In this document: in pieces, positions 3,001 to 36,081 of the stretch | Layout of the letters: each line of letters opens with the position of its first letter | Numbering within the stretch: the stretch's first letter is position 1 | Source: Candidatus Omnitrophota bacterium | GTDB taxonomy: Bacteria > Omnitrophota > Gorgyraeia > Gygaellales > Profunditerraquicolaceae | DNA: 64,000 nt | Assembly (NCBI GenBank): GCA_020058085.1 | Contig: JAGVER010000005.1 | Location: forward strand, 2,743 to 66,742 | Direction of reading: 5' to 3' | Translations under genes and position numbers: made by a program | Notes under the pieces: generated by a model | Database searches by the model: none | Told to the model about the DNA's origin: nothing | What the model saw: only the letters and a program-made list of their open reading frames with translations

Positions 3001-6000
3001 GATACCGGGCCGTTTAATCCCATTGTGGAGAATTATGGAGTTCCTAATGATGGTAAAGTGGCAAATGGCGCCGGCTCCGGCGGCCCCGGTTCAGAATATA
3101 CCTATACTTGGACAATTCCCGATACTATCTCGCCGAATTGTAAGGTAAGAGTAGCAGACCCTAGGGATGAAACTGTGTTTAGCGAATCTGCAATATTTAA
3201 AATTCAGGGCGCCTTTACTTTGATTACTCCGCTAGTGGTTGATAATGGGCAGGGTGTTTATGAATGCCGCTGGGTTACTAATGAAGTAAGAGAAGTAAAA
3301 TGGACTACTTTTGGAACAATCCCCAAGGTTGATTTGGTTTATGCTAAAGATTCTGATAGTGATGGTGATATCGATAATGCGGATTTTACGCAAGAAATTG
3401 CCATGGTAAATGGGACTAATATTAATAATCTTAATACATTTAATTGGACAATTCCCAATGAGCGCTTAGCCAATCCGCCTTATTATGTGGAAGCCAAGAT
3501 ACGTATTTATGACCATAATGATCATGATGTTTATGTTCAGGGCCCGGTTACCGCCGGTGGAGTGGATAACTTGAAGATTGATTACTATAAGATTACCTGG
3601 GATATTAGGGATCTGATTACTAACCGGCAGATCGAAGGCTTGACAGTAAACGATACCTCCGGCTGGGTAGCTACCGGGCTTGCTTCGCCTATCACTCGTT
3701 ATGTTCCTGCAGGTTTCTGGACAGCAGAATGGACAAATAAAGATTATGGGCCGATATCTGAATCTTATCTTGCAGGCTGGGATGAAGATGCTCAGATTTG
3801 GCGGGGTGACCGCACAATTTATCGCACTATGGAGACTTTGGTAGTGCATATCTGGCGGGCTTATTCAGAATTTTCTTATGATGTTCCGCCTACGGATAAA
3901 TTAAATATTACCAGCTGGTTGGAAAGAGATGGTTATTTGGTTTCCGGCGTTTTGATTACAGATGTAACTATCTATGATGGTTTTGATAAGATAAAGAGAA
4001 AGACTAACTTAGTAGACGAGGCCGCTAATAAATTCTATTATTATACTGATATCCCTCCCGGCGTAAAATTGTGGATAGGCGACCGCTTGGGGGAACTGCG
4101 CACTATGCAAAATGTAATCAATGATTGCGCGCCGTATAAAACCGGCGAGATGGCTATACCTGCTGACTTTGCCGGTTTCTTTATCCAGTCTTGGTCTCCC
4201 ACTTCCTATACTGCCTCAGGCACAAATCACAGTACTTTGCAATCAGGTAGAGTCTACGCAGTTGCCAGCTATATGGGTTTATCCACCGGCGCTACCTTTA
4301 CTACTCCCGTATCATTTACGGTTACGATACCCATAGCCATGGCTAATGTTGAAGCAGCGGTTACTGGAATGGTTGACACGGTTAACTCTGTTTTGGATAA
4401 GCCTATATCCGTAGTCAGTGCGGAGATACAGGCTCAGTTAGAGGCGCAAACCGGGATTATTGACCAAAAAATGACTGAGCAGACCCAGATAATTCAGGTT
4501 GCCACCAATAATATGCAGACGATCATTCAGGATGCGATGGTTAGTTTTGAGACTACGGTGCAGGATTCAATTACTCTCTTGAAATCAAGCGCGGCGACAG
4601 CAGAAGAGGCAGCCGGGCTTCTGGAGACCACTGCTAAAAAATACTCTTGGAATGCTATGGTCTCTCCTGATCCGGCACTTACCGGCGATACTGTTACGCT
4701 AACTGCCCAGGGTATGCCCGGGTTAGCTCCCGTGCTTAAAGTTTATAGCTGGGATAATAAGACTATTTTAGATAATATAAAATTGACTGAGGCCAGCGAG
4801 GGAGTCTATAATTATGAATTTAAGGTGGATGCCCGTTTTACCGCGGGAAAGGCGTATACTTATGTGGTTACTGAGCAGAGTACTGCCGGCATGGTCTCCG
4901 GCTCCGGAATGGTAGAAAGTATGAGTCTTACTACGATTGCTGGTTTAGCGGCAGCCGCGCCTGGAGCGGAAAGGGCTGCCAAGAAGGCATTAGATGCGAT
5001 TGCGGCAGTTGAGGCAGTATTAATCTCTAAGGAGCCGATGAATATTGCCCTTACCCTAAAGAACCTTAAAGATTCCGTAGACGCGCTTCCAGAGGTAATG
5101 ACAAAAGAAGGCCCTTCCGCTCGTCTGGCTCAAACAGTAAATGAGATATCAAACAGGATAAAGAAATTGGGCGGCGATGAGGGGTATGATTTTACTACTT
5201 TAGTAGGTGAAGCTATAAACGAGGCGCCGGCTATCAAAGAATTACGCAGCAAGGCGGATGCAATCAGGACATCTACCGATGTTTTGACAAATGTTTTTGA
5301 AGCCAAATTTGGCGGCGTAGATAAGCCTGTTGTTGTAACTTCACTGGAACCCGGAAGCGTCAAATTCCGGATTGTAGCGCTTAACCCTTCGAAGACCAAG
5401 ACGCAAAAAACAGAGATAAAATACTATTTGCCTGCTGAAGTAAAACCAAAAGATATTTCAGATACAGCGGGCTTAGATTTGGAATATGATTCCGAAAAGT
5501 CTATTTACTACGTATATAAACCTGATCTAGAACTTTCTCCGGGTGAGATGCGCGTATTTGAGGTAGAAGTAGAAGATATTTGGTTCTTAGAGCAGAATAA
5601 ACTTTTAGAACTAAAGAATCGCACTGATATAGTCCTTGGTAAGCTTGAGACAACGCCTTATTATACAAAAGCTAAAGAGATAGCCGATACTATTTATCCG
5701 CGCTTAGATGAGATAGCTCTTTCTCAAAAAGATGATTCAATCAATCGCGAACAACATATAGGTATCTATCGGCAAAACCTTTTGACCTTAGGTCAGGTTA
5801 AAGAAGATATCGCCCGAATGGAAAAGATTCTTGTTACTGCCGGAGGGCCACCTGCGCCTGAAATGTTAGCCAAGACTAAAATAAAGGCGGATGAGCCTTC
5901 AAAGACAATGACCTGGATAGTTATTTGCACAGTTATTATTTTTACCGGGCTCTTAGCTGGAGTTCTTTTCTTTACTTGGCACCGCCAGGCACGCATCAGT

Positions 6001-6078
6001 AAAGAAGAACTTTTATCTGCTAAAAAGTCTGCCTTTCCAGAATCTGGTTCTAAAGAAGAACCTAAAGAAAATTCATAA
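1..6078 (+). CDS. Giant repeat-rich cell-surface protein, 5'-truncated by the window edge. It has >=12 tandem ~95-118 aa beta-rich (Ig-like) repeats, non-repeat beta and helical C-terminal regions, and a single C-terminal TM anchor.
   Basis: Frame 1 is open from nt 1, and GGTWQDIVSNLDVVPGANTYPWTVPVS already fits the repeat consensus, so the GTG at 97 is not the true start. Repeat consensus is roughly [FL]xLxSPNGGExW...ITW...G....V.I.YS....W..I....NDG.Y.WT[IV]P.....C.[IV]R[IV].D......D.SD..F.I.G. The TM helix MTWIVICTVIIFTGLLAGVLFFTW (nt 5908-5979) is followed by the basic tail HRQARISKEE. Confidence 0.85.
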   Translation, partial: GGTWQDIVSNLDVVPGANTYPWTVPVSTSTNTVVKVSDSSALSSVFKQTGVFTIRGGFSFVHPVSTDRWLANSSKLIEWNTLGSISSVYIQYSLQGGAGGIWNFVNDGSPISNATEQYSWTVPNAISSQACIKITDINDPQASKISDIFNIHGAITLTQPNGQEKLKAGQSDTSSKIKWTMTGPISSVDLALSTNGQAGTYTTFAVNQSAALLEYPWSVPTTTLSNNCFIRIRDSGDNLVEDFSDLAFKIMENFNLTSPNGTEQWVVSDPHDITWNSVGLASSVNLKYSIDAAHTTWTPIISQTVNDGVHPWTIPPTISSTCQVRVSDFNDDTDSYDLSDSDFKIQGRVTLISPVGGEKWGCASQQWIRWGWDGNIAKVDIHYYNGSTWVAIDEAQGYINTGEYEWTIPTISTIAAKVRVRDNADPINVYDISAVPFKIMGRVVVQVPNGAEVWYAGSNAVITWTKYGPASFDTVRIDYSLDDPAFNSPQSITTSTPNDGSFDWLNMPQEAVSGKVRIRIAKPDDIADVSDISDGDFRVRVQFTLNSPNGGQKWSVAGEQTITWAQIGNTQGVKFIYYRQGNPAINQTFTLPSVYTTGTWNHTWTIPDFIQNDLIMRVEDPLDNGAFDISDATFKIMAGFVVTRPDASSANEVDYKWYIEDPEIIRWTYTGTVSDVGIYYSTVGGIDGSWVALTSVPASNLQWTWPSVPNQITTQLKVKVGSATDADAYGLSFGMSRIGSKFNLTAPLGAEELIVQDPFTIIWANTGTVSKVDLHYSTDDFVTPREIITNLNNGANGGFYNWTVPDVFSHPGDPQTVKVRVKRYTDDDSFFFDISGNFRIKGSLWVKSPILDDEWDIGQPYQIKWGWKGTMPQVKIAYSTNGLSGPFNPILESYGIPNDGKVANGAGSGGPGSEYTYTWTIPDEATANAVIRIQDERITESDIVDDSEIFHIIGYLANVKIKDPANGQEVNKLAVASNYNINWEWGGSMPEVKITYSINGDTGPFNPIVENYGVPNDGKVANGAGSGGPGSEYTYTWTIPDTISPNCKVRVADPRDETVFSESAIFKIQGAFTLITPLVVDNGQGVYECRWVTNEVREVKWTTFGTIPKVDLVYAKDSDSDGDIDNADFTQEIAMVNGTNINNLNTFNWTIPNERLANPPYYVEAKIRIYDHNDHDVYVQGPVTAGGVDNLKIDYYKITWDIRDLITNRQIEGLTVNDTSGWVATGLASPITRYVPAGFWTAEWTNKDYGPISESYLAGWDEDAQIWRGDRTIYRTMETLVVHIWRAYSEFSYDVPPTDKLNITSWLERDGYLVSGVLITDVTIYDGFDKIKRKTNLVDEAANKFYYYTDIPPGVKLWIGDRLGELRTMQNVINDCAPYKTGEMAIPADFAGFFIQSWSPTSYTASGTNHSTLQSGRVYAVASYMGLSTGATFTTPVSFTVTIPIAMANVEAAVTGMVDTVNSVLDKPISVVSAEIQAQLEAQTGIIDQKMTEQTQIIQVATNNMQTIIQDAMVSFETTVQDSITLLKSSAATAEEAAGLLETTAKKYSWNAMVSPDPALTGDTVTLTAQGMPGLAPVLKVYSWDNKTILDNIKLTEASEGVYNYEFKVDARFTAGKAYTYVVTEQSTAGMVSGSGMVESMSLTTIAGLAAAAPGAERAAKKALDAIAAVEAVLISKEPMNIALTLKNLKDSVDALPEVMTKEGPSARLAQTVNEISNRIKKLGGDEGYDFTTLVGEAINEAPAIKELRSKADAIRTSTDVLTNVFEAKFGGVDKPVVVTSLEPGSVKFRIVALNPSKTKTQKTEIKYYLPAEVKPKDISDTAGLDLEYDSEKSIYYVYKPDLELSPGEMRVFEVEVEDIWFLEQNKLLELKNRTDIVLGKLETTPYYTKAKEIADTIYPRLDEIALSQKDDSINREQHIGIYRQNLLTLGQVKEDIARMEKILVTAGGPPAPEMLAKTKIKADEPSKTMTWIVICTVIIFTGLLAGVLFFTWHRQARISKEELLSAKKSAFPESGSKEEPKENS
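2689..3119 (+). repeat. Two perfect 77-nt direct repeats (2689-2765 and 3043-3119), 354 nt apart, inside adjacent protein repeats of the giant gene
   Basis: cctaatgatggtaaagtggcaaatggcgccggctccggcggccccggttcagaatatacctatacttggacaattcc occurs identically twice. It encodes PNDGKVANGAGSGGPGSEYTYTWTIP in both repeat units, while the flanking sequence has diverged. Confidence 0.95.
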
Positions 6079-6101: not shown

Positions 6102-6335
6102 ATGTTTCTTGATATTACTGTTTTAAGTCCAAAAGAAATAGTTTTTGAAGGAAAGGCTAAAAGTGTTATTTTACCGGGCGAAAATGGCGTATTCGAAGTG
6201 TTAGTGTTTCATAAATTTATCTTAAGCCGGCTTATTTCCGGAAAAATCACGGTAGATGAACAAAGCTTTCCCATACGCAGGGGGATTGTTAAGGCCCGTC
6301 AGAATAAAGTCACCATAATTATGGAAGAAGGATGA
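6102..6335 (+). CDS. atpC: F-type ATPase epsilon subunit, N-terminal beta-sandwich only (77 aa)
   Basis: VILPGENGVFEVLVFHKFILSRL...NKVTIIMEE matches the epsilon N-domain pattern (PG.eG.fgvL..H.p....L ... VtIla). The C-terminal two-helix hairpin is absent. ATGA overlap with the next gene. Confidence 0.7.
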   Translation: MFLDITVLSPKEIVFEGKAKSVILPGENGVFEVLVFHKFILSRLISGKITVDEQSFPIRRGIVKARQNKVTIIMEEG

Positions 6336-6550
6336 GCAGGAATATAGCACTTATTGTAATCTTTGGGTTCTGTGTATTGGGCCCTTGTGCTGTATTTGCC
6401 GCGGGTAGTTTCGCCAGTATTAACGCGCTGGGAAGGAATCCTTCAAGCGCGCCTAAAATATTTACCGCGATGATTATCGCGCTTGTTTTTGCTCAAGCCT
6501 TAGCAATTATAGCAATGTTAATAGTTTTTCAATTGTTCTCGCAATCATAG
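6332..6550 (+). CDS. ATPase c-subunit-like two-helix membrane hairpin lacking any acidic residue
   Basis: 72 aa with two hydrophobic helices joined by the polar loop GRNPSS (cf. ARQPE). It aligns nearly colinearly (one-residue offset) with 72-aa bacterial c subunits. ALVFAQALAIIAML corresponds to GVALVEALPIIGVV, with Gln55 (CAA, nt 6494-6496) at the ion-binding Glu position. The whole protein has no D or E, and the helix-1 GxGxGxG motif is degenerate. Confidence 0.6.
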   Translation: MSRNIALIVIFGFCVLGPCAVFAAGSFASINALGRNPSSAPKIFTAMIIALVFAQALAIIAMLIVFQLFSQS

Positions 6551-6601
6551 GCAGATAGAGTATAATTATCGCAAAGAGAGCTTAATTAGGAAAGGTAAAA
6601 T

Positions 6602-7318
6602 ATGTTTATCGTCCCTTTAATAATATTCCAGATATTTATTTTTGTTATTTTGGTTTTTGCTTTACGTAAAATAATGATGAAAAATGTGGTTTCGGCTACA
6701 AGGCACATTAATGAAATGGGCCAGGATTATGATAAAAAAGAAGAGGAGATAAGCAGGCGGTTTGAAGAACTAAAGCAGGAATCAGAGGAAACGGTTAGAA
6801 AAGCGCAACAAGAAGCGCAAGAGTTAAAGGCAGGGATTATTAAAGAAGCTGAAAGCGAAAGAGATAAAATGTTAAAACAGAGCAGGTCTCAAAGCGATGA
6901 GATAATTAAGCAGGCAGATAAGTCAAGGCAGCTTTTGCTCTCTGAAATAGACGAAAGAATAGCCAAAGAAGCGGTTAACAAAGCCTGTGAATTAATCCAG
7001 GAGACTTTGCCGGAACAGCTTAAGCAGAATGTGCATAGGTATTGGGTAAAAGAACTTATTAACGCTGGATTTAGCGAATTAGAGCGTTTACGCATTCCCA
7101 AAGATATCGACGAGGTAAAGATTATTTCAGCCTTTAATCTGGATGAAGAAGAGCGCAAAAATCTGTTTGATAAATTAAAAAACACGCTGGGTTCCGGGGT
7201 TAAATTTAAAGAAGAGATTGAACCAAAGGTAGTCGCAGGGATTATCATTACTATAGGCAGTCTTGTCCTAGACGGAAGTTTAAGGAATAAGATTAAGGAG
7301 AATATTAGGAATGCCTGA
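6602..7318 (+). CDS. ATPase peripheral-stalk b subunit fused to a delta/OSCP-like C-terminal domain
   Basis: N-terminal TM helix (MFIVPLIIFQIFIFVILVFAL), then a long charged coiled coil typical of subunit b. The C-terminus KVVAGIIITIGSLVLDGSLRNKIKENI matches the delta-subunit C-terminal signature (v.gG..i.iGd.viDgSvr..L..L). No separate atpH gene is present. Confidence 0.65.
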   Translation: MFIVPLIIFQIFIFVILVFALRKIMMKNVVSATRHINEMGQDYDKKEEEISRRFEELKQESEETVRKAQQEAQELKAGIIKEAESERDKMLKQSRSQSDEIIKQADKSRQLLLSEIDERIAKEAVNKACELIQETLPEQLKQNVHRYWVKELINAGFSELERLRIPKDIDEVKIISAFNLDEEERKNLFDKLKNTLGSGVKFKEEIEPKVVAGIIITIGSLVLDGSLRNKIKENIRNA

Positions 7319-8804
7319 TTCGGTATTAAAGGAAACAAGTATTAGAAGTGCGACCCGATTTGAAGTTAGAGAGATTGGACAAGTTCAGTCGGTGCGTAAA
7401 TTTATTCTTATTGTCAAGGGCCTGCCATCTTGTATTAATGGCCAGATTGTGGAGCTCGCAAATGGCACATTAGGATTGGTGATGGGTTTTACCGAAGATA
7501 AAGTCCAGATTTTAGTTTTAGGCGATGCTAGTTCTATCCGCGCGGGAGATGAGGTTTATAATAAAGGAAGGTCTTTGAATTTAGCTGTAGCAGACGCATT
7601 TTTAGGGCGGATAATCAACAGCCTTTGCCAGCCACAGGATGGCTTAGGCCCTATAGTGGTAAGCGAATTATATCCTGTATTTAAAGTGGCGCCGGGAGTT
7701 ATGGACCGCGCGCCTGTAAAAGATACCCTTGAAACAGGAACACTGATTCTGGACGCGATTATTCCTATAGCCAAGGGGCAGCGTCAGCTTCTTATAGGAG
7801 ATAGGCTTACCGGTAAGACAACGGTCGCGATTGACGCTATATTAAATCAAAAAGGCAAGGATGTTATTTGTATTTATTGCTGTATCGGGAAACCGTACTC
7901 CAGCTTCTTAAAGATTTTGGATATTCTAAATGAAAAAGATGCCTTACAATATACAATAATAGTCAGCGGTGTAGCATCTGTATCTACGGGAGAGCAATAT
8001 CTGGCCCCTTATACCGCCTGTATGCTGGGCGAATATTTTATGAATAAAGGCAAAGATGTTTTAGTTGTATTTGATGATTTGACTAAGCACGCGTGGATAT
8101 ATAGGCAGATATCTCTTCTTCTTGAGCGCGCGCCCGGAAGAGAGGCATACCCCGGAGATATATTTTATATTCATTCCCAATTAATGGAGCGCGCAGGTTT
8201 TCTTAAGCAGGAACTAGGTAGCGGATCAATGACATTTTTCCCCATTGTAGAAATACTTCAGGGCGATGTTACCGGTTATGTTTCCACAAACTTAATCTCT
8301 ATGACTGACGGGCAGCTGTATTTCTCTACCACACTTTTTAATAAAGGGTTTAAGCCGGCAATTGATTTTGGCCTTTCAGTTTCCCGTATCGGAAATAAGG
8401 CGCAATGGCCGGCGATGAAAGATTTAAGCAAATCTTTACGCCTGGATTACCTCCAGTATAAAGAACTTTTACAAATGACGCAATTACGGACTAGCGGGTT
8501 ATCCAAAGAAGCAGAGTTACGCTTAAAAAGAGGAGAAGCAATAAATCAACTTATTATTCAGGATAAAAATATCCCTGTTTCCTTGGAGGAGCAGATAATT
8601 TATCTGGTTGCTTTAAGCCGCGGCGTGCTTGATAATTTGCCGGTAAGTAAAATTAAACAATTTAAACAAGAGATCCTCAAATTCTTAGATAAGCGTTATC
8701 CGGGATTTTCTTTAAGCCTTCGTAACAGTAAGGCATTGACAGATGAAACCAAGATACAGATAGAGGATGTTTTGAGGGAGTATTTTAAGGAAGCGATAAA
8801 GTAA
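7311..8804 (+). CDS. atpA: F-type ATPase alpha subunit
   Basis: 497 aa. P-loop GDRLTGKTTVAID, LLLERAPGREAYPGDIFYIHSQLMERA, GLSVSRIG. Confidence 0.9.
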   Translation: MPDSVLKETSIRSATRFEVREIGQVQSVRKFILIVKGLPSCINGQIVELANGTLGLVMGFTEDKVQILVLGDASSIRAGDEVYNKGRSLNLAVADAFLGRIINSLCQPQDGLGPIVVSELYPVFKVAPGVMDRAPVKDTLETGTLILDAIIPIAKGQRQLLIGDRLTGKTTVAIDAILNQKGKDVICIYCCIGKPYSSFLKILDILNEKDALQYTIIVSGVASVSTGEQYLAPYTACMLGEYFMNKGKDVLVVFDDLTKHAWIYRQISLLLERAPGREAYPGDIFYIHSQLMERAGFLKQELGSGSMTFFPIVEILQGDVTGYVSTNLISMTDGQLYFSTTLFNKGFKPAIDFGLSVSRIGNKAQWPAMKDLSKSLRLDYLQYKELLQMTQLRTSGLSKEAELRLKRGEAINQLIIQDKNIPVSLEEQIIYLVALSRGVLDNLPVSKIKQFKQEILKFLDKRYPGFSLSLRNSKALTDETKIQIEDVLREYFKEAIK

Positions 8805-8807
8805 CCA

Positions 8808-9653
8808 ATGAAGACACTTTCAAACATAAAAAAAGATTTAGAGTTTAACCGCGGACTTTCTTCTTTAATCGAAGTGTTAAAAACTATGGCCGTGGCGCAA
8901 TACAGGATATTAGAGGAGAGGTTAAAGATTTTCGAGAAATTAATTGTATCCATAGAAGATTTTTTTGAGCATGTCGATATCACCAAGATTAATCATCCGT
9001 ATTTAATCCCCCAAAATAGATTTCAAGGAGTAGTGGCAATAACTTCTGACAGTGGGCTTTTGGGCGGCCTTAACATGCAGGTCGTCTCCGGCGCGCTTTT
9101 GGAATTAGAAAAGACCCCCGGCAAGCTTATTATTATCGGCGAACGCGGTAAACTTTATGTACGGGAGACTAACATTCCTTTTGTCTCTTTTGGCGGAGTT
9201 AAGGATGATGAGCGCTATGCCCAGGCCATGCAATTAAGGGATTATCTATTAGCTAAGGTTCTTGACGGCTCTTTCGGGTCTTTAAAGATAATTTATCCGC
9301 ATCCTGTATCTTTTACTGTGCAGCACGTGGAAACAGTTTCATTCCTGCCTTATAAGCCGAATTTAGTTAAGGAGAATACCGCTCTCCAAGCTTATCCAGA
9401 AGTTATTTTAGAATCAAGGGTAGGTGATATTATGCAATATTTGGTGTATACCTGGATGGGCCAGAAAATTTATGAAATCTTCGGCTTAAGCCGCTTGGCA
9501 GAATTTGCTGCCCGTTTTGTGCATCTTGAAGGAAGCCATCAGAGATTAAGAGAAATGGATACTAAAATTAAATTGGAGTATTTTCATGTCAGGCACGAAC
9601 TTATTGACCGTAATATGCGTGAGCTTTTCGCGGCAAGATTAGCTTTTTCTTAA
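8808..9653 (+). CDS. atpG: F-type ATPase gamma subunit
   Basis: 281 aa lying between alpha and beta. The N-terminal helix IKKDLEFNRGLSSLIEVLKTMAVAQY and C-terminal helix RHELIDRNMRELFAARLA fit the gamma coiled coil. Confidence 0.75.
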   Translation: MKTLSNIKKDLEFNRGLSSLIEVLKTMAVAQYRILEERLKIFEKLIVSIEDFFEHVDITKINHPYLIPQNRFQGVVAITSDSGLLGGLNMQVVSGALLELEKTPGKLIIIGERGKLYVRETNIPFVSFGGVKDDERYAQAMQLRDYLLAKVLDGSFGSLKIIYPHPVSFTVQHVETVSFLPYKPNLVKENTALQAYPEVILESRVGDIMQYLVYTWMGQKIYEIFGLSRLAEFAARFVHLEGSHQRLREMDTKIKLEYFHVRHELIDRNMRELFAARLAFS

Positions 9654-9656
9654 TAT

Positions 9657-11057
9657 ATGAAAGAAAATAAAGATATTATAATAGGGCATGTATCCGCGGT
9701 TCAGGGGCCTGTAGTGGATGTTAAATTCCAGAATTCAGTTGATGTGCCTAATATATTCAGCGTTATTCAAACCCAAACCATAGATAAAGAAAAGGTTGTT
9801 TTAGAGGTAGCAGAACATCTTCCGGGAAACATTGCCCGTTGCATTGCTATTAACTCGACGATAAATCTTCAGCGTAATCAGGAAGCCTACTCAAGTGGCG
9901 CTACTATTCAAATTCCTACAGGCGATATGCTTTATGGGCGCATAATAAATATGTTGGGGGAGCCCATTGATCAGAAAGGCGAAATTAAAAGTTCAGAGAG
10001 ATCTAATATAAGAAAAGCAGATATGGGAAGCCAGGTTAGATTAAAAAAAGATTTCCATAGGAGCTTTGATGTAATGGAGACCGGGATTAAAGTTATTGAT
10101 CTTCTTTTTCCCGTGGTTAAGGGAGGCAAAACCGGGATTTTAGGTGGCGCGGCTTTGGGAAAAAGTATTTTAACCCTGGAAATTATTCAGCATATTGTAA
10201 AAAGGCATCAGGGTAGCTGCGTATTTGTGGGTGTCGGTGAGCGTATCCGCGAGGGAAACGAGCTTTATTATGAATTATTAAAACACGAAGTTTTAGCTAA
10301 AACAATGATGGTCTTTGGCCAGATGAATGAGCCTCCGGGAGCCCGTTTCGGCGTGGCAATGACAGGTATTACCTTGGCTGAATCTGTTCAAAGGAAGAAT
10401 CAGGATGTCCTGCTTTTTGTGGATAATATTTTCAGGTTTGTTCAGGCAGGAGCAGAGATATCTACCCTTTTAGGCCGCGTTCCATCGGAGACAGGTTATC
10501 AGCCTACCTTGATTTCAGAGGCGAGTGAATTTCATGAGAGGATACGTTCTTCACAGGAAGCAGGCGGCGCGATTACTTCTTTTGAAGCAGTATATGTTCC
10601 TGCCGATGATTTAACTGATCCGGCAGTAGTAGCTATTTTTAGTTTCTTGGATTCAATTCTGGTACTTTCACGCGAACGCATACAATTGGGTTTGTATCCT
10701 GCGGTAGATCCCTTATTATCGTCCTGCGCTAATTTGGATATTGATATCGTCGGCAGAAAACATTTTGATATTTCTCAAGAGGTAATCAGGATTTTTCAGA
10801 GATACGAAGAATTAAGGCGCATTGTTTTAGTTGTGGGAATCGATGAATTATCGTCCACCGACCGCATTCTTTATGAACGCGCCAGAAAATTACAGAATTT
10901 TCTTACCCAGCCATTTTTTGTCGCGGAGACTTACACCGGTAAAAAGGGAGAGTATGTCACTTTGCCCCAGACTCTCGAAGGTTGTGAAAGGATTATCGCG
11001 GGAAGAGTTGATTCTATCCCCGAGGAACAATTTTATTTGATTGGTGTTTTGCCCTAA
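9657..11057 (+). CDS. atpD: F-type ATPase beta subunit (catalytic)
   Basis: 466 aa. P-loop GGAALGKS, VGVGERIREGNELY, DVLLFVDNIFRFVQAG, GRVPSETGYQPTL, YVPADDLTDPA. The DELSEED region reads DELSSTD. Confidence 0.92.
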   Translation: MKENKDIIIGHVSAVQGPVVDVKFQNSVDVPNIFSVIQTQTIDKEKVVLEVAEHLPGNIARCIAINSTINLQRNQEAYSSGATIQIPTGDMLYGRIINMLGEPIDQKGEIKSSERSNIRKADMGSQVRLKKDFHRSFDVMETGIKVIDLLFPVVKGGKTGILGGAALGKSILTLEIIQHIVKRHQGSCVFVGVGERIREGNELYYELLKHEVLAKTMMVFGQMNEPPGARFGVAMTGITLAESVQRKNQDVLLFVDNIFRFVQAGAEISTLLGRVPSETGYQPTLISEASEFHERIRSSQEAGGAITSFEAVYVPADDLTDPAVVAIFSFLDSILVLSRERIQLGLYPAVDPLLSSCANLDIDIVGRKHFDISQEVIRIFQRYEELRRIVLVVGIDELSSTDRILYERARKLQNFLTQPFFVAETYTGKKGEYVTLPQTLEGCERIIAGRVDSIPEEQFYLIGVLP

Positions 11058-11059
11058 AG

Positions 11060-11527
11060 ATGATTAGAAGTCCCAAAAGATTAGGTGATATCTTAATAGA
11101 GAAAGGCTTGATAACCCAAGAAGTGTTAGATGATGCTTTACGCGAGCAGCGGGAAACAAAGGAATTCTTGGGCGCAATATTATTAAGAAAAAAACGGATC
11201 AAAGAAGCGGATTTGTTAACGGCGCTATCTGAACAATTTCATATTCCACTTTTTAGTTTGAAAGATAAATATATTGATTGGAATTTAGTCAAGGGCTTCA
11301 GCGCTTCGCTAATTTTAGATTACAGATGTTTCCCTGTAGCCAAAGATGATTGGTCAATAACCATGGCCATAACTAACCCCTTGGATATCCGGGTACTAAA
11401 GAGGGTCGAAGATGAAGCAAAGGGATTAAGATTGAAATTAGTTTTGGTTTCCGAGGGAGATATCAACGATTCTATTAAGAGGTACAATAGCTATCTAAGG
11501 GGTAATATTTCTAAACTATTCGAGTAA
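11060..11527 (+). CDS. Stand-alone GspE/MshE N-terminal (MshEN / T2SSE_N) domain protein, predicted c-di-GMP receptor
   Basis: 155 aa. Residues 7-30, RLGDILIEKGLITQEVLDDALREQ, match the 24-residue MshEN motif RLGxx[LVI][LVI]xxG[LVI][LVI]xxxxLxxxLxxQ exactly. After a 5-residue spacer comes a second copy, FLGAILLRKKRIKEADLLTALSEQ, with G->K at one position. Confidence 0.8.
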   Translation: MIRSPKRLGDILIEKGLITQEVLDDALREQRETKEFLGAILLRKKRIKEADLLTALSEQFHIPLFSLKDKYIDWNLVKGFSASLILDYRCFPVAKDDWSITMAITNPLDIRVLKRVEDEAKGLRLKLVLVSEGDINDSIKRYNSYLRGNISKLFE

Positions 11528-11530
11528 AAT

Positions 11531-13684
11531 ATGCCTAAGAAACTAGATATAATTTTATCAGAAGCATTAATTGAAAAAAGGTTAATCGCGCAGAATGATA
11601 TAGGCAATTTTCTTAAAGAGGCTGAGTCATTGAATGAAAGCCTGCAGCAAATTTTAATTAAACGGGGCATTTTTCCTGAAAAAGATATTTTGAATATTTT
11701 GGGGGAAAAATTAAAGTTATCCAGCGTTAACTTAAGAGAGATCACAATTGATAAAGCTGTTTTAGCAAAAGTCCCGGTCAAAATTGCCTTGTATTATAGA
11801 TTCGTCCCGGTTCAAATAAAAGACAGGGTTTTAACTATTGCGGTTTCTTGCCCGTTAGAGATAAAAATCCAGGATGAGGTAAGGGCGCAGCTGGGTTATG
11901 ATATTGAGACGGTTCTCTCTTCTTCGGGCGATCTCCTGGAATCCCTGAAGAAATATTATGGCTTGGCGGCCGATACCTTAGAAAAGATTTCTTCTAACGT
12001 CCAGCAGGCCGAAGCATCCCACGAAACGCATTTTGAGACAGTAGAGGATATTGAAAAGCTGGCAGGAGACGCTTCGGTAATAAAATTGGTCAACCAGATA
12101 ATTCTGGAGGGATTCAGGAAACGCGCTACCGATATTCACATTGAGCCTTATAGAGAAGGGGTCTCTTTACGTTATCGCATTGACGGGTTGCTTTACGACG
12201 CAAATTTTCCTCCCGAAATAAAGAATTTCTTAAGCGCTATAATTTCCCGTATTAAGATAATGTCCAATTTAAATATTGTTGAGCGTAGGCTACCCCAGGA
12301 TGGCAGGGCGATAGTAAAGGTTGGAGAGCAGATGCTGGATCTGCGTATTTCCACAATACCTACGCCATTCGGGGAAAGTGTGGTAGTAAGGATCCTGCCT
12401 ACGCAGATGCTTTTTAGCCTGGAGAAGCTTGGGCTTGGGAAAAAAGATTTGCAGGTTTTTGAGGGATTAATTAAGAAACCCCATGGTATAATTTTTGTTA
12501 CCGGTCCGACAGGGAGCGGAAAGACTACTACCTTGTATGCCTGTTTAAGCAGGATTAATACCAAAGAACGTAAAATTATTACCATTGAGGATCCTATTGA
12601 GTATGAAATGTCCGGGATTACCCAGATACAGGTTAGTCCGGATATCGGCCTGGATTTTGCCCGGGGATTACGCAGTATTTTAAGGCATGACCCGGATGTA
12701 ATAATGGTAGGAGAGGTCAGGGATTTAGAAACCGCAGAAATAGCTATTCGCGTGGCCTTGACCGGCCACCTTGTATTTTCCACTCTCCATACTAATGATG
12801 CTGCCAGCGGTATCACCAGATTAATAGACATAGGAGTCGAACCGTTTCTTTTGGCTTCCAGCGTTGAGGCATTCATTGCCCAGCGTTTAATAAGATTAAT
12901 TTGTCCTGATTGTAAAATTGAGGATAACGCCGCTCCCATAGAATTAAAAGAGCTGATTGCCCGGGACATTTCCTTGAAGTCCTTAAATGAGGTTAAGATA
13001 TTTAAAGGTAAGGGTTGCCCGAGTTGCAACTTTACCGGATTTTTCGGCAGGACCGCAATTTACGAAATACTCCCGGTGGACGAAGCAATGAAGGATTTAA
13101 TTTTGAAGAAAGCCACTGCTACTCAGATAAAAAGGCTTGCTCTTTCAAAAGGGATGCGTACATTGCGTCAGGATGGTTGGCATAAAGTAATTCTCGGAGC
13201 GACCACCCCTGAAGAAGTGATGAAAGTTACTTCTGCCGAAGAGTATACGGAAGAAGATAAAAATGCCCGGTTCCTTCCCGCCGGTTCTTTAAAGCCAGTA
13301 ACTTATCAAGTCCCAAATCCCGATGAGAAAAGGGCGTATCTTCGCTTAAACAGCAAAGTGAATTTACGTTATAAAGTATTTGATACGGCAGAGAAGCTGC
13401 TCAAAAAAGGATTTAAGCCGGAAGAGTTTAGCGTTACAAATAATCTTTCCGCGGGGGGCCTGGTCTTTTTTTCAGACGATATGCTGGCTGTTGGTTTGAT
13501 TTTAGAATTAACTATAGAACTGCCTGATAGCGAGGAGCCGATAGGATGCCTGGCTAAAGTGGTAAGGCTGGAAGAGAGGCAGGATCATAAAGGTTATAAT
13601 GTTGCAGTTTGTTTTCTGGATATAACCGGCGCAGGAAGATCAAGGCTAGGAAGGTACATAGAATTAGAAACGGAGATGATATAA
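11531..13684 (+). CDS. GspE/PilB-family secretion ATPase with N-terminal T2SSE_N domain and C-terminal PilZ domain
   Basis: 717 aa. Walker A GPTGSGKTTT, Asp/His boxes, tetracysteine CPDC...CPSC. The C-terminal ~120 aa carry the PilZ motifs KRAYLR (RxxxR) and NLSAGG ([DN]xSxxG). Confidence 0.9.
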   Translation: MPKKLDIILSEALIEKRLIAQNDIGNFLKEAESLNESLQQILIKRGIFPEKDILNILGEKLKLSSVNLREITIDKAVLAKVPVKIALYYRFVPVQIKDRVLTIAVSCPLEIKIQDEVRAQLGYDIETVLSSSGDLLESLKKYYGLAADTLEKISSNVQQAEASHETHFETVEDIEKLAGDASVIKLVNQIILEGFRKRATDIHIEPYREGVSLRYRIDGLLYDANFPPEIKNFLSAIISRIKIMSNLNIVERRLPQDGRAIVKVGEQMLDLRISTIPTPFGESVVVRILPTQMLFSLEKLGLGKKDLQVFEGLIKKPHGIIFVTGPTGSGKTTTLYACLSRINTKERKIITIEDPIEYEMSGITQIQVSPDIGLDFARGLRSILRHDPDVIMVGEVRDLETAEIAIRVALTGHLVFSTLHTNDAASGITRLIDIGVEPFLLASSVEAFIAQRLIRLICPDCKIEDNAAPIELKELIARDISLKSLNEVKIFKGKGCPSCNFTGFFGRTAIYEILPVDEAMKDLILKKATATQIKRLALSKGMRTLRQDGWHKVILGATTPEEVMKVTSAEEYTEEDKNARFLPAGSLKPVTYQVPNPDEKRAYLRLNSKVNLRYKVFDTAEKLLKKGFKPEEFSVTNNLSAGGLVFFSDDMLAVGLILELTIELPDSEEPIGCLAKVVRLEERQDHKGYNVAVCFLDITGAGRSRLGRYIELETEMI

Positions 13685-13688
13685 CAAT

Positions 13689-14903
13689 ATGGGCACGTAT
13701 AAATATCGCGCAAAAAAAGGTTTTAATGAAGTTGTGGAAGGGTTAATTGACGCGCAGTCTGAAAAAGAAGCGATTGAAAAGTTAAGCTCTATGGAGTTGT
13801 TGCCCTTACACTTGGAAGAAGCCCGTGCCAGTAAATCTAAATCCATTTCTTTAGTCAAATTTCGCGGTAAAATTAAATCACGCGAAATTACTATTTTCAG
13901 CCGTCAATTAGCCAGCCTTTTGAAATCCGGCGTAGCTATTTTAAACGCCCTTAATATTATCAATGATCAGTCTGATGATTCTAACCTGAAAAATATACTT
14001 TATAATATTAGCAATGCAATAAAAGATGGCGCTACATTTTCTTCGGTGCTTGCGCAATATCCCCGGGTTTTTTCTCCTCTTTATGTTGCCATGATCCGCA
14101 CGGGAGAAGGCAGCGGGTCGCTTCCGGATGTGCTTTTAAGGATATCTGACTATCGCATCAAGCAAGAAGAGATGCTTTCGCGTTTTCGTATGGCCCTTGT
14201 TTACCCGATACTCATGGCAGTTGTGGGCCTGGGCACTATAATTTTTATGCTCACATTTGTAATGCCAAGATTAATGAAGATATTTTTGAGCATGGGGCAG
14301 GATTTACCTTTACCTACCCGTATTTTAATTGCGATAAGTGGTTTTCTTTGCCATAGCTGGTTTTGGGTAGTCTTAATTTTGGCAATCATAATTTTAATTC
14401 TTCGTAGAGAACTAAGGACAAAGTCCGGAAGGCTATCTTTGAGCCTGTTTAAATTACACCTTCCTTTGTTCGGAAAGCTTATCCTTAAAGCTGAACTTGC
14501 CCGTTTTTGCCGTACCCTGGAATTACTCATAAAAGATGGCATCACTATATTAAAGGCGATTGAAATAGCTGTTCCGGTAATTGACAACGAAATAATAAAG
14601 AACCATTTATTGCAGAGTTATCAACAACTACAGCGCGGCGGTTCTTTTGGTAGGAGTTTAAGAAATGTAAAATTATTTCCTGTTTTCATGAGTAACCTTA
14701 TAGGAGTAGGCGAAGAATCAGGCAGGCTTGATGAGGCCTTGGCGGAAGTGGCAGGTAATTACGAGCGGGATACTGACGAAGCAATTAAGGTAATGAACAG
14801 TCTCTTAGAGCCGGTGATGATTTTAGTAATGGGCTTAATCGTAGGTTTTATCGTGGTTGCAATGATTCTGCCCATATTTGAAATCAACATGATGGCTAAA
14901 TGA
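13689..14903 (+). CDS. GspF/PilC-family inner-membrane platform protein
   Basis: 404 aa with a duplicated T2SSF domain architecture, three TM segments, and a position directly after the GspE-like ATPase. Confidence 0.9.
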   Translation: MGTYKYRAKKGFNEVVEGLIDAQSEKEAIEKLSSMELLPLHLEEARASKSKSISLVKFRGKIKSREITIFSRQLASLLKSGVAILNALNIINDQSDDSNLKNILYNISNAIKDGATFSSVLAQYPRVFSPLYVAMIRTGEGSGSLPDVLLRISDYRIKQEEMLSRFRMALVYPILMAVVGLGTIIFMLTFVMPRLMKIFLSMGQDLPLPTRILIAISGFLCHSWFWVVLILAIIILILRRELRTKSGRLSLSLFKLHLPLFGKLILKAELARFCRTLELLIKDGITILKAIEIAVPVIDNEIIKNHLLQSYQQLQRGGSFGRSLRNVKLFPVFMSNLIGVGEESGRLDEALAEVAGNYERDTDEAIKVMNSLLEPVMILVMGLIVGFIVVAMILPIFEINMMAK

Positions 14904-15757
14904 TAAAGAAAGTAAAGATTTTACTTATTTTCCCGCTGCTATTTTTATCTTTATCTATAGCTAAGGCGGAAGAGTGGCAGGAGTTAAAGAGTGAACATTT
15001 TATCGCTTATTTTACCCGGGATGAAAAATTCGTCAAAGAAGTATTGGATAAAGCAGAGGTTTATTATCGTAGCATCGCTTTAGATTTAGGGTATTCTAGA
15101 TACAAAGAATTCTGGACTTGGGATAAAAGAGTAAAAATTTATATTTATCCGGACCATGCCTCCTATTTAAAGGCAACGGGTCAACCTGACTGGTCTCAGG
15201 GGGTAGCGGATTACAGGGCTAAACAGATAATTAGTTTTATCTGGAGCAGGGGATTTCTTGAATCGCTTCTTCCTCACGAAATGGCCCATTTGATTTTTAG
15301 GGATTTTGTGGGTTTTGAAAGCGATATACCCCTCTGGTTAGATGAAGGCGTGGCGCAATGGGCAGAAGATGTAAAAAGAGGGACAATGAAGAGGATGGTC
15401 AAGGATGCTTATAATCAGAATGGATTATTGAGTATGAATGATATGATGAAATTAGAGATTAGGAATTTAAAGGATAAAAACCTGGTTTTTATCCGGCCAA
15501 CACGCACAAAAGAAGGCAACGACGGAGTTGTAATTTTAAATAGCACTAATTTAGTTAATCTTTATTATTTAGAGGCCGCTTCACTAGTAGATTTTCTTAT
15601 AGCAAAATATGGCTCTGATAGTTTTGCTAATTTGTGTCGTCAGCTGCGCGACGGCAAGCAGATAGAAGAGGCCTTAACTTTTACTTATCCTAGTTCTATC
15701 CGTAGTATCGGTGACTTGGATAATCAGTGGAGAGATTATATAGCGAGGCAGTATTGA
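14900..15757 (+). CDS. Secreted zinc metalloprotease-like protein (peptidase MA-like, HExxH)
   Basis: Signal peptide MIKKVKILLIFPLLFLSLSIAKA. HEMAH at LLPHEMAHLIF and a downstream LWLDEGVAQWAE (gluzincin-type third ligand). ATGA overlap with the GspF-like gene. Confidence 0.6.
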   Translation: MIKKVKILLIFPLLFLSLSIAKAEEWQELKSEHFIAYFTRDEKFVKEVLDKAEVYYRSIALDLGYSRYKEFWTWDKRVKIYIYPDHASYLKATGQPDWSQGVADYRAKQIISFIWSRGFLESLLPHEMAHLIFRDFVGFESDIPLWLDEGVAQWAEDVKRGTMKRMVKDAYNQNGLLSMNDMMKLEIRNLKDKNLVFIRPTRTKEGNDGVVILNSTNLVNLYYLEAASLVDFLIAKYGSDSFANLCRQLRDGKQIEEALTFTYPSSIRSIGDLDNQWRDYIARQY

Positions 15758-36007: not shown

Positions 36008-36081
36008 CGGGGCGTGGCTCAGTTTGGTAGAGCGCTTGGTTCGGGACCAAGAGGCCGACAGTTCGAATCTGTCCGCCCCGA
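36008..36081 (+). tRNA. tRNA-Pro (anticodon CGG), CCA not encoded
   Basis: Acceptor stem cggggcg/cgccccg, D-arm gctcagtttggtagagc, anticodon stem cttgg/ccaag with loop ttCGGga, T-arm gacag-ttcgaat-ctgtc. Confidence 0.9.

Follow-up and report, generated by a model that had tools for sequence, protein, structure and literature searches.

What does an F-type ATPase do when its catalytic head has been kept and the parts that move ions have not? The question is posed by six genes on the + strand of a 64,000-nucleotide stretch of an Omnitrophota contig (hereafter the window), which occupy positions 6102-11057 in the order ε, c, b/δ, α, γ and β. An initial annotation had proposed this order from the letters alone; all six ORFs lie at the coordinates given there, and each is named by the Pfam and NCBIfam profile searches through which we assigned subunit identities.

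The catalytic head

The α subunit (497 aa; 7311-8804, + strand) scores 542 bits against NCBIfam atpA (cut-off 484), and the β subunit (466 aa; 9657-11057, +) scores 560 bits against atpD (cut-off 463). The P-loop GDRLTGKT and the arginine finger of α are intact, with K175, T176 and R376 (E. coli numbering) kept in 60-62 of 62 loci, and β residues K155, E181, R182, D242, R246 and Y331 are invariant in all 62. The catalytic motifs listed in the initial annotation (GDRLTGKT, GGAALGKS, GERIREGNE, DNIFRF and YVPADDLTDPA) can all be read in the translations. Canonical F1 α chains are the best PDB matches of α (463-490 bits), and β matches canonical β chains at 444-470 bits versus 335 bits for β of the Mycoplasma mobile G1-ATPase. 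The γ subunit (281 aa; 8808-9653, +) is divergent, being recognized by Pfam ATP-synt over residues 5-275 at 106 bits and by TIGR01146 at 75 bits, which is under the cut-off. The ε subunit (77 aa; 6102-6335, +) consists of the β-sandwich only: its ATP-synt_DE_N match (E = 6.9e-12) is confined to residues 4-75, the inhibitory C-terminal helices are missing as had been noted, and ε is short in all relatives, the orthologues also measuring 77 aa. The acidic residues of the β DELSEED motif normally touch the C-terminal domain of ε; here the motif reads DELSSTD, and its acidic residues have decayed in relatives as well. Judged by its sequences, the α3β3-γ-ε head is catalytically intact.

Position 55 of the c subunit

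The ε stop codon overlaps the start of the c gene (ATGA, -4 nt), which encodes a 72-aa hairpin (6332-6550, +; Pfam ATP-synt_C, 27.3 bits) with no Asp or Glu anywhere in its translation, as first observed in the initial annotation. The ion-binding Glu has given way to Gln at residue 55 (codon CAA, 6494-6496), which aligns with E. coli cAsp61; each lies 20 residues past the loop Arg of R-Q/N-P. Among 86 sequences from about 80 species-level loci, this position holds Q in 42, E in 36, V in three, A in two, and G, F and S in one each. Glu55 is ancestral and retained in basal branches of an α+β tree that requires at least 11 independent E-to-Q changes, and E and non-E states alternate among very close relatives, in which neither c nor the content of the locus differs systematically in any other way. 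The family alignment contains no compensating membrane carboxylate in c. In a search of 1.84 billion proteins the carboxylate-free c was confined to the Omnitrophota family, all more distant c sequences keeping Glu. An assembly error, the alternative that the initial annotation attached to the finding of Glu in relatives, was rejected because dozens of independently assembled genomes have Gln, Val, Ala or another residue here, even though many relatives do carry Glu55.

The remainder of c is under purifying selection (dN/dS about 0.18) and is as conserved as its partners, with a mean p-distance of 0.32 versus 0.34 and 0.29 for α and β. Its cytoplasmic loop G-R-N-P-S-S-A-P-K-I-F, the contact for γ and ε, is invariant in the family. 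These comparisons support the view that the Omnitrophota family as a whole can dispense with the c-ring carboxylate; about 40% of species keep Glu55, and in those lineages it may serve some ion-related role.

The peripheral stalk and the search for subunit a

The b/δ gene (6602-7318, +) encodes a protein that begins with a TM helix, continues as one unbroken helix of ~130 residues and ends in a δ/OSCP C-domain. Pfam ATP-synt_B covers residues 7-132 and the C-terminal half of OSCP covers residues 162-233 (profile positions 95-167); the N-terminal helical bundle of δ is missing. The best NCBIfam match is alt_F1F0_F0_B at 58 bits, under its cut-off. Foldseek aligned the AF2 model (pLDDT 84.7) with the mycobacterial b-δ C-domain at an rmsd of 1.5-2.4 Å, and with OSCP/δ too; on this predicted structure the protein is a real membrane-anchored stalk.

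No AtpB-like ORF was detected at E<=10 when phmmer was run with E. coli AtpB against every ORF of 40 aa or more in the 64-kb window and in 85 related loci, these loci and their surroundings amounting to about 1.1 Mb. The window ORFs with at least three hydrophobic segments are the GspF/PilC, FtsK, PgsA, PgpA, MraY-region and FtsW-region proteins. Sporadic multi-TM ORFs at the related loci were considered as candidates for subunit a and rejected, being kinases, a permease or PilC. The reported absence of subunit a from the window is thus upheld by both scans, and as far as sequence comparison reaches the subunit is missing at the level of the locus, in the window and in the 85 species-level loci alike. 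Of the layout that the initial annotation proposed to look for in relatives, the a-less part holds in all 85 loci, whereas the carboxylate-less part holds in about 50 of 86 and fails in the 36 with Glu55.

Genomic setting and module X

The six genes had been presented as a unit of their own; the genes stand, but this frame is too narrow, as they form the middle of an array of 17 co-directional genes with intergenic gaps of -68 to +51 nt. At one end of the array is a giant surface-protein gene that extends past the left edge of the window; at the other is a cluster resembling type II secretion (T2SS) and type IV pilus (T4P) systems. The repeat-rich giant protein is represented by its C-terminal 2,025 residues (1-6078, +; frame 1 is stop-free over nt 1-6075 and already open at nt 1), and in Pfam it yields nothing but a weak match to the Ig-like Kre9_KNH; orthologous upstream ORFs reach 7,326 aa (L001) and 7,753 aa (L004). 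Downstream, 2 nt past the β stop, begins a stand-alone 155-aa MshEN-domain protein (11060-11527, +; E = 1.8e-12), a c-di-GMP-binding domain type whose gene is found in most related loci. It is followed by a GspE/PilB-type secretion/pilus ATPase that carries MshEN at its N-terminus and PilZ at its C-terminus (11531-13684, +; T2SSE, E = 1.5e-129), the GspF/PilC inner-membrane platform protein (13689-14903, +; T2SSF, E = 3.9e-55) and a Peptidase_MA-family metalloprotease of conserved synteny (14900-15757, +; Peptidase_MA_2). A pseudopilin and assembly block closes the array (15771-20161, +; gaps -68 to +13 nt), comprising by Pfam match, all on the + strand, GspG (15771-16184), an N-methyl pseudopilin (16162-16557), GspJ-like (16535-17119) and GspK-like (17052-18113) proteins, a PilM-PilN fusion (18114-19601) and a GspM/PilO-like protein (19598-20161). 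The order giant protein/module X, ε-c-b/δ-α-γ-β, MshEN, GspE-PilZ, GspF, peptidase, pseudopilins is fixed in 80 of 80 genome loci. Across the related loci, respiratory genes never lie beside the operon, and its flanks are always the giant surface protein and T2SS/T4P genes.

The direct upstream neighbor of ε is always what we call module X, as a gene or as a segment. In this window the giant protein carries it as a fused segment (5320-6078, +) made up of a conserved β-sandwich, a three-helix bundle, a single TM helix towards the C-terminus (nt 5911-5979) and ~35 aa of cytoplasmic tail; in about 20 other species module X stands alone as a protein of 263-300 aa with its own signal peptide. Its AF2 model (pLDDT 88.7) gave no significant match in a fold search of the PDB. 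Neither module X nor b/δ has a conserved membrane-embedded Arg or polar residue, the Arg and Lys residues at the cytoplasmic boundary being variable. Mirror-tree partial correlations of module X with b/δ (r = 0.37) and c (r = 0.27) are weak and could reflect shared membrane composition.

Comparison with known systems

The locus is a member of the set of non-respiratory 'symbiotic' (sF-ATP) F-type ATPase loci described in Omnitrophota by Seymour et al. 2023 (Nat Microbiol, PMC10066038), and this kind of locus is therefore already known. On the basis of α-subunit phylogeny and co-location only, that study proposed a non-respiratory role in attachment or motility on host cells, with T4aP genes within 10 kb of the ATPase loci in 57 of 66 contigs. 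Phylum and co-location are the same here, where the β stop lies 2 nt from the MshEN/GspE-PilB genes. The text and supplements searched make no mention of a missing subunit a, a retained but carboxylate-free c, a b/δ fusion, a short ε, module X or obligatory adjacency to a giant ORF; these features, together with the statistics for c position 55, are new here. Complete Omnitrophota genomes have also been reported to lack a complete F1Fo, and most Gorgyraeia to carry V/A-type ATPase subunits (10.64898/2026.06.07.730766).

The initial annotation had drawn a comparison with the Type 2 and Type 3 'F1-like X0' ATPases of Mycoplasma (Beven et al. 2012, PMC3369863), which include the gliding G1-ATPase of M. 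mobile (PMC11864180) and the MIB-MIP-linked Type 3 (PMC12994834). The likeness is one of analogy: both combine an F1-type α/β/γ/ε head removed from chemiosmosis with a non-Fo membrane partner and a surface role (gliding legs of giant proteins, or antibody cleavage) in a small host-dependent bacterium. Family membership is not borne out, as the window α and β score no closer to the Type 2/3 models than those of E. coli and fall under every cut-off, and the statement in PMC10066038 that α clusters with these types finds no support in our HMM scores. From these scores and the 335 versus 444-470 bits for β we conclude that the origin was independent. The Mycoplasma clusters also lack c, b and δ homologues and instead have three unrelated proteins, of which two contain 3 and 12 TM helices, whereas the Omnitrophota locus keeps a genuine c and b/δ and its extra partner is single-pass.

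Compared with canonical F1Fo (atpIBEFHAGDC), α, β, γ, the ε N-domain, the c hairpin, the b helix and the δ C-domain are homologous, α and β score above the equivalog cut-offs and no catalytic residue is missing; the locus differs in lacking subunit a, the δ N-domain and the ε C-domain, in a c carboxylate that is not conserved, in fused b and δ, and in a gene order of its own set among surface and secretion genes. N-ATPases (atpDCQRBEFAG) likewise have no separate δ and a long b, alt_F1F0_F0_B covers the full b/δ, and our gene order can be derived from β-ε-(QR-a)-c-b-α-γ by cyclic permutation. Unlike them, the locus has no atpQ, atpR or atpB and no ion site in c, and its alt_F1F0 scores stay far from the cut-offs (α 508/750, β 483/752, b 58/225, γ 23/282). 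A further precedent is the V-ATPase, whose c-ring lumen holds single-pass proteins (ATP6AP1/Ac45, PRR and yeast Voa1p), according to the passage of 10.64898/2026.07.01.735876 that cites them. Such a type-I protein, with a large extracytoplasmic domain and a C-terminal TM helix inside the rotor ring, has the topology of X and the giant protein; the likeness would be one of architecture alone, with no homology.

A probable ion-uncoupled motor and its alternatives

An ordinary H+/Na+-translocating F1Fo ATP synthase, with its subunit a gene elsewhere in the genome and Gln55 a local oddity or error, would explain why α and β exceed the canonical NCBI cut-offs, why c and the b/δ stalk are present and why 36 of 86 relatives have Glu55, and our search for subunit a covered the window and the related loci. 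However, in about 50 of 86 species another residue has taken the place of the essential carboxylate, many times independently and with c otherwise conserved, and ion-coupled rotation is incompatible with this pattern. Given in addition that not one atpB was met around the 85 loci, that the operon keeps company with the giant protein and T2SS/T4P genes and never with respiratory ones, and that published surveys term the complex non-respiratory or incomplete, we regard this reading as very unlikely. Somewhat less so, but still quite improbable, is that Glu55 species move ions through an unrecognized non-homologous stator (such as module X or b/δ), with the Gln, Val and Ala species secondarily uncoupled. 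The ancestral Glu kept in basal branches and the presence in X of a conserved membrane partner favor it, but the variable boundary Arg/Lys residues of X and b/δ and the alternation of E and non-E among very close relatives, with c and locus content otherwise unchanged, do not.

The FliH/YscL proteins have been linked to b/δ, with a b-like N-terminus and a δ-like C-terminus. The fusion logic of b/δ may resemble that of FliH, and the F1 head could be a non-rotary export type like the FliI6-FliJ-FliH of type III secretion, energizing or unfolding the giant protein or T2SS substrates for export, with c and b/δ as mere membrane anchors. The position of the genes directly past the giant exported protein and ahead of the secretion genes would suit such a role, and FliI-family models are secondary matches for α and β. 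Against this stand a heterohexamer with non-catalytic α that is typical of rotary F1, scores of 540-560 bits on F-type models versus 165-195 bits on FliI/SctN models, and the lack of any export-gate homologue; moreover, the retention and conservation of γ, ε and the c coupling loop speak for a rotor that is still in use. We consider an export role unlikely. That the operon is a decaying remnant heading to pseudogenization in a reduced genome would fit the losses of subunit a, the δ N-domain, the ε C-domain and the c carboxylate, but it is contradicted by six intact ORFs in about 80 species, invariant catalytic residues, a c gene under the constraint given above, fixed gene order and spacing, and one MAG in which the entire locus occurs twice (as L008 and L014), and is scarcely credible.

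We conclude that the complex is probably a derived Omnitrophota F-type rotary ATPase, uncoupled from the ion gradient, which hydrolyzes ATP to drive or energize a surface apparatus. The initial proposal of an ATP-hydrolyzing module with an inert c-ring, not an ATP synthase, is supported by the comparative data; ATP would be burned for mechanical work because the ion-moving parts are lost and the operon is tied to a giant surface protein and a secretion-pilus machine. Without the half-channels of subunit a, Glu55 would stay protonated and act like Gln, and position 55 would for that reason drift neutrally between E and Q. The c-ring may be retained as rotor and membrane bearing, with b/δ as stator, and hydrolysis would be free of restraint by ε, since the C-terminal domain of ε is lost and DELSEED has decayed. 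Torque may be passed to, or reacted against, module X, the only other ever-present membrane protein and one physically linked to the giant adhesin-like protein. A ring spinning freely without subunit a would have no obvious load, which counts against a motor. An ion-uncoupled motor would probably serve attachment, motility or an attack on host or prey cells, the function put forward by Seymour et al. for such loci. If this is correct, the operon would serve not to make ATP but to turn it into mechanical work at the surface of a tiny predatory or symbiotic bacterium.

Catalytic head, stalk and a locus without subunit a

Six tightly packed ORFs on the + strand (window 6102-11057) were identified with Pfam and NCBIfam as F1 epsilon, c, a b/delta fusion, alpha, gamma and beta, confirming the gene order and subunit identities of the initial annotation. 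The alpha (497 aa) and beta (466 aa) subunits score 542 bits on the NCBIfam atpA model (cut-off 484) and 560 bits on atpD (cut-off 463), and are clearly divergent, with the E. coli proteins reaching 869 and 875 bits on the same models. All alpha and beta catalytic motifs that had been quoted are present: Walker A and B, the catalytic Glu and the Arg finger are intact, and across 62 related loci beta Lys155, Glu181, Arg182, Asp242, Arg246 and Tyr331 are unchanged, alpha Arg376 is invariant, and alpha Lys175 and Thr176 are kept in 60-62 of the 62. The gamma subunit (281 aa, + strand, Pfam and NCBIfam) is separated from alpha by 3 nt in the window and in most loci; in the near-identical loci L001 and L002 a non-coding gap of ~550-600 bp occupies this position (L001 12759-13362, L002 10912-11488).

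Epsilon is 77 aa long and comprises the N-terminal beta-sandwich only (Pfam and NCBIfam), which bears out the proposal that its inhibitory hairpin is missing, and its length is ~77 aa in every related locus. In beta, the acidic residues of DELSEED, the usual contacts of the epsilon C-terminal domain, are eroded to DELS-x-x-D across the family loci. The short epsilon and the decay of DELSEED are consistent with a loss of epsilon auto-inhibition. In the 238 aa b/delta protein, ATP-synt_B matches residues 7-132, and of the OSCP/delta profile the C-terminal half alone (profile positions 95-167) follows, the N-terminal alpha-binding bundle being absent. An AlphaFold2 model (pLDDT 84.7) has a TM helix running into a ~130-residue stalk helix and then an alpha/beta domain, which can be superposed, at 1.5-2.4 A, on the C-domain of delta in mycobacterial b-delta, and also on OSCP. 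Judged from their sequences, the F1 head and stalk look functional.

No subunit a was found in the 64 kb window, nor within ~10 kb on either side in 85 related loci, and phmmer with E. coli AtpB gave no match in the window or in the 85 loci. A hydropathy scan of the window returned only GspF/PilC, FtsK, PgsA, PgpA and cell-wall proteins as ORFs with three or more hydrophobic segments, in line with the earlier reading that no multi-TM subunit a is encoded there. Candidates for a hidden neighbouring subunit a were rejected by Pfam, which assigned the sporadic multi-TM ORFs to PilC, FtsK, PgsA, PgpA, a sensor kinase, a Cache-domain protein and an ArsP permease. One locus, L070, carries a 1.6 kb insertion between c and b/delta (1537-2999) that was likewise rejected, as it encodes a HepT-like RNase/nucleotidyltransferase (MNT) toxin-antitoxin pair. 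For genome '221', the supplement fragments of PMC10066038 list K02111 and K02112 without K02108-K02110.

The c-ring carboxylate

The 72 aa c subunit (6332-6550, + strand) matches Pfam ATP-synt_C at 27 bits and, as stated in the initial annotation, contains no Asp or Glu. Gln55 (CAA, nt 6494-6496) occupies the position of the ion-binding carboxylate, 20 residues past the loop Arg, which is the spacing of E. coli cArg41 and cAsp61. In ion-coupled enzymes this mid-helix-2 carboxylate is invariant. In the Omnitrophota family position 55 is mixed, both among the 120 closest database clusters (E64/Q56/M1) and among 86 sequences comprising the window and 85 loci (Q42/E36/V3/A2/G1/F1/S1), where it is encoded by CAG/CAA, GAG/GAA and other codons. 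Of the layout that the initial annotation proposed to check in relatives, the 85 loci share the absence of subunit a, and the absence of the carboxylate is shared only in part, with Glu in 36 of the 86 sequences. An assembly or sequencing error at Gln55, which the initial annotation had raised against its own reading, is ruled out, because dozens of assemblies made independently of one another repeatedly show Gln (CAA/CAG) or another non-acidic residue there.

When alpha and beta were concatenated (954 columns) for a neighbour-joining tree with E. coli as outgroup, Glu55 came out as ancestral and parsimony requires at least 11 E/Q changes, a count that is approximate because the tree is a simple distance tree, in addition to separate replacements by V, A, G, F and S. 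Pairs of c sequences nearly identical except for E or Q at position 55 are easy to find, and no compensating membrane-embedded carboxylate occurs elsewhere in c in the 86-sequence set. The remainder of the protein is as conserved as the catalytic subunits (mean p-distance 0.32 for c, 0.34 for alpha, 0.29 for beta, 0.52 for gamma and 0.61 for b/delta; c dN/dS ~0.18), and its cytoplasmic loop, GRNPS(S/A)APKIF, which in known enzymes touches gamma and epsilon, is invariant in the family. A c-subunit profile search covering 1.84 billion representative proteins confined the Q/S/A/F variants to the Omnitrophota family, all more distant c subunits retaining Glu. On these comparative sequence data the c-ring carboxylate is dispensable, and not under selection, in this family. 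The simplest reading is that the ring never meets the half-channels of a subunit a, in which case Glu55 would stay protonated and thus be equivalent to Gln.

A mixed ring formed with a second, Glu-bearing c, of which Acetobacterium provides an example, was considered and rejected, since the only locus with two c copies, L050, carries Gln in both; its c genes lie in tandem (L050 976-1495), the second being ~49% identical to the query. Two Cys (C14, C19) are conserved in helix 1 of c, which also has an invariant Pro18 and only a partial small-residue repeat in place of the usual GxGxGxG packing motif. The polar residues Asn4 and Gln67, near opposite ends of the protein, do not vary; the packing or stoichiometry of the ring may not be that of canonical rings. 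The profile search of representative proteins also returned P0383 (1139 aa), P0402 (968 aa), P0427 (631 aa) and P0401 (447 aa), in which c-type hairpins are fused in large numbers (6-15 matched stretches, Glu in every case) and which look like covalently linked rotor rings.

Module X and the giant surface protein

Upstream of epsilon lies a giant repeat-rich surface protein whose ORF is open from nt 1 and stops 23 nt short of epsilon; the window covers at least 2,025 aa of it. In V. archaeovorus the giant ORF is reported to rise in cells attached to prey. Its last ~250 residues (nt 5320-6075, + strand) form a conserved segment, module X, consisting of a beta-sandwich, a three-helix bundle, one C-terminal TM helix and a short cytoplasmic tail. 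The TM helix is strongly conserved (TWIVIF..I.F.GLL..V.FFTW, nt 5911-5979). X is fused to the giant ORF in ~38 of 72 loci, the window among them, and in ~20 of the 72, including basal branches, it is a stand-alone protein of 263-300 aa with its own signal peptide, encoded between the giant gene and epsilon; the fusion therefore appears derived. Signal-peptide-bearing stand-alone versions of ~270 aa include P0302, P0305, P0323, P0338, P0363 and P0320.

The structure model of X is confident (pLDDT 88.7), and a fold search of it against the PDB gave no significant match. Neither X nor b/delta has a conserved membrane-embedded Arg, and thus neither looks like an a-type ion path. In a mirror-tree comparison, in which pairwise distances were correlated after removal of a phylogeny proxy, the X TM helix and tail correlated with b/delta (0.37) and c (0.27) and at ~0 with alpha, beta, gamma and PilC. 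This co-variation of X with the membrane subunits is suggestive only, being too weak to claim contact. We regard X as a previously unremarked seventh component of the system.

Operon context and distribution

The six ATPase genes form the centre of a co-directional array of 17 genes with gaps of -68 to +51 nt. A downstream set begins 2 nt past beta with a stand-alone MshEN protein, GspE/PilB, GspF/PilC, Peptidase_MA and GspG, and continues with pseudopilins (N-methyl, GspJ-like, GspK-like), a PilM-PilN fusion and a GspM/PilO-like protein (Pfam). The GspE/PilB gene, which starts 474 nt past beta, encodes an N-terminal MshEN and a C-terminal PilZ domain and is preceded by the 155 aa stand-alone MshEN (11060-13684), giving three consecutive domains of c-di-GMP-binding type (MshEN, MshEN, PilZ) in this interval. 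Their presence suggests that the whole apparatus may be under c-di-GMP control. The Peptidase_MA metalloprotease (14900-15757) lies between GspF/PilC and GspG in nearly all loci. Up to ~22 kb the cluster showed neither an A24 prepilin peptidase nor a secretin (GspD/PilQ).

Housekeeping genes fill the remainder of the window (PNPase, FtsK, riboflavin genes, LigA, dcw cluster), with a tRNA-Pro(CGG) at 36008-36081 and an XerC/D-type recombinase at 39447-40334. The + strand carries almost all of the long ORFs; over 1-64000 every 2 kb bin has a positive GC skew and the cumulative skew climbs monotonically. From the strand bias and monotonic skew the window resembles a single stretch of core chromosome on the leading strand of one replichore. 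A promoter and terminator scan performed at chance level and was uninformative.

The closest c and b/delta homologues are annotated as Candidatus Omnitrophota/Omnitrophica, and a c-profile scan of GTDB species-representative genomes returned 360 matching stretches. The comparative loci are the best 80 of these 360 (V. archaeovorus LiM is not among them), and in every sufficiently long one the gene order is identical: giant-protein C-terminus, epsilon, c, b/delta, alpha, gamma, beta, (MshEN), GspE/PilB, GspF/PilC, Peptidase_MA, GspG. The MAG STD1_64 holds two complete copies, L008 and L014 (JAQURC010000009.1 and JAQURC010000010.1), as if the giant-ORF/ATPase/T2SS-like unit duplicates whole; mis-binning is the alternative.

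Relation to known ATPases

The window alpha and beta exceed equivalog cut-offs as canonical F1Fo subunits do. The canonical enzyme, however, has a subunit a with its essential Arg, absent from this window and from 85 related loci, a helix-2 Asp/Glu in c where the window has Gln55, and a full delta and two-domain epsilon, whereas here the delta C-terminal half is fused to b and epsilon is reduced to its N-domain. Membership of the N-ATPases was rejected, as all alt_F1F0 scores fall under their cut-offs (alpha 508/750, beta 483/752, b 58/225, gamma 23/282). The N-ATPase operon, atpDCQRBEFAG, contains atpQ, atpR and subunit a, whereas no ORF lies between epsilon and c in the window; the two are alike in a long b without separate delta and in a gene order that is cyclically permuted.

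The Mycoplasma F1-like X0 systems are seven-gene clusters without c, b or delta (PMC3369863). Type 2 drives gliding (PMC11864180), and the MIB-MIP surface system has now proved to depend on Type 3 (PMC12994834). Type 2 beta has a long N-terminal extension that the window beta lacks, and c and b/delta are present in the window; neither the Type 3 X0 proteins with 3 and 12 TM helices nor the MIB-MIP association occurs there. On the Type 2 models glide_MMOB1660 and glide_MMOB1670 the window scored 401 (cut-off 600) and 427 (cut-off 850), against 412 and 495 for E. coli alpha and beta, and on the Type 3 models MSC_0619_alpha and MSC_0618_beta it scored 304 (cut-off 520) and 403 (cut-off 570), against 312 and 427 for E. 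coli. In the PDB comparison M. mobile G1 beta reached 335 bits versus 444-470 for canonical betas. Membership of Types 2 and 3 was rejected on these scores. Since they lie below the cut-offs and are no better than those of E. coli, the comparison drawn in the initial annotation holds for function only: the Mycoplasma systems are the closest functional analogue, not relatives.

Seymour et al. 2023 (PMC10066038) describe an ATPase that is present in every class and adjoins type-4a pilus genes (co-located in 57/66 contigs), argued from alpha phylogeny and co-location. In the window, whose nearest c and b/delta homologues are from Omnitrophota, alpha and beta lie within 10 kb of a type-4 pilus/T2SS-like cluster, as specified by those authors; by this co-location the window belongs to their set, and its kind is already known. 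With regard to the monophyletic 'symbiotic' Omnitrophota clade of alpha in that paper, its alpha is 55-83% identical to that of 80 Omnitrophota loci with identical synteny, and alpha and beta of 62 loci group together relative to a single E. coli outgroup, in a tree that gives no test of monophyly. The clustering of alpha with Mycoplasma Type 2/3 described there (PMC10066038) is not supported by our model scores. Subunit a, c, b/delta, epsilon, module X and giant-ORF adjacency go unmentioned in the searched text and supplements of PMC10066038, and West-Roberts et al. 2023 reported T2SS-like genes near giant genes, with no F-ATPase. Thus the locus class is already in the literature, and its anatomy (the absence of subunit a, the carboxylate-indifferent ring, X and the tie to the giant protein) adds to it. 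A 2026 preprint on 176 complete genomes recorded alpha and beta in 125/176 and gamma in only 30 as 'incomplete F1F0', and V/A-type subunits in most Gorgyraeia (10.64898/2026.06.07.730766), a picture that fits subunits too divergent to pass KO thresholds, with chemiosmosis left to a different enzyme.

Discussion

The comparisons establish, at the level of sequence, an intact rotary head, rotor and stalk, a locus without subunit a, a carboxylate that is not under selection, and an operon in fixed linkage with X or the giant protein on one side and with a T2SS/T4P-like machine of c-di-GMP type on the other. We favor, with some confidence, the interpretation that this is a motor driven by ATP hydrolysis and uncoupled from ions; X, and through it the giant surface protein, would either receive its torque or serve as the brace for it. 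The proposal of an ATP-hydrolyzing module on an inert c-ring, rather than a synthase, is thus supported by the comparative data and sharpened. That the operon is one part of a split but otherwise ordinary ATP synthase is very unlikely, being contradicted by the carboxylate data, and a decaying remnant is scarcely credible in view of the conservation. We also consider it unlikely that the ATPase serves as a T3SS-like energizer of export, and quite improbable that Glu-type species retain residual ion coupling through a non-homologous stator.

A further elaboration of the ion-uncoupled motor, which we put forward tentatively as possible though doubtful, is that the F-type ATPase was exapted to transmit torque across the membrane. 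Its ion-blind c-ring would persist as a rotor and single-pass X would replace subunit a, the conserved C-terminal helix of X lodging in or on the ring as the ATP6AP1/Ac45 and Voa1p helices sit in V-ATPase rings (precedent cited in 10.64898/2026.07.01.735876). Rotation would then cross the inner membrane to the periplasmic domain of X and, where X is fused, pass straight to the giant surface protein, which might act together with the T2SS/T4P-like machine when the cell attaches or preys.

Obligatory coupling between the c-ring carboxylate and the subunit a Arg has its textbook example in the rotary F-ATPases. In KEGG and NCBI pipelines the genes of this family are annotated as 'F0F1 ATP synthase', and chemiosmotic ATP synthesis may be attributed to the genomes in error in metabolic reconstructions. 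A bioenergeticist would be surprised by a strongly conserved c-ring that lacks a subunit a, is indifferent to its carboxylate and is linked with a single-pass protein and a giant surface protein. With the rotor-stator architecture, c-ring included, retained across hundreds of uncultivated species, the family is a natural experiment on the purpose of a c-ring when no ions are carried. It would represent a second, independent case, beside the mycoplasmas, of an ATP synthase re-used as a cell-surface motor and, if the torque-transmitter reading is true, a bacterial surface motor of a new class, assembled from the parts of an ATP synthase with an origin separate from that of the Mycoplasma systems. 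Candidates for the membrane interface are module X, b/delta and c, and the MshEN and PilZ domains point to c-di-GMP control, in a surface system tied to the enigmatic giant proteins of predatory or episymbiotic Omnitrophota; these would be starting parts for the study of how such nanobacteria attach to or attack their hosts.
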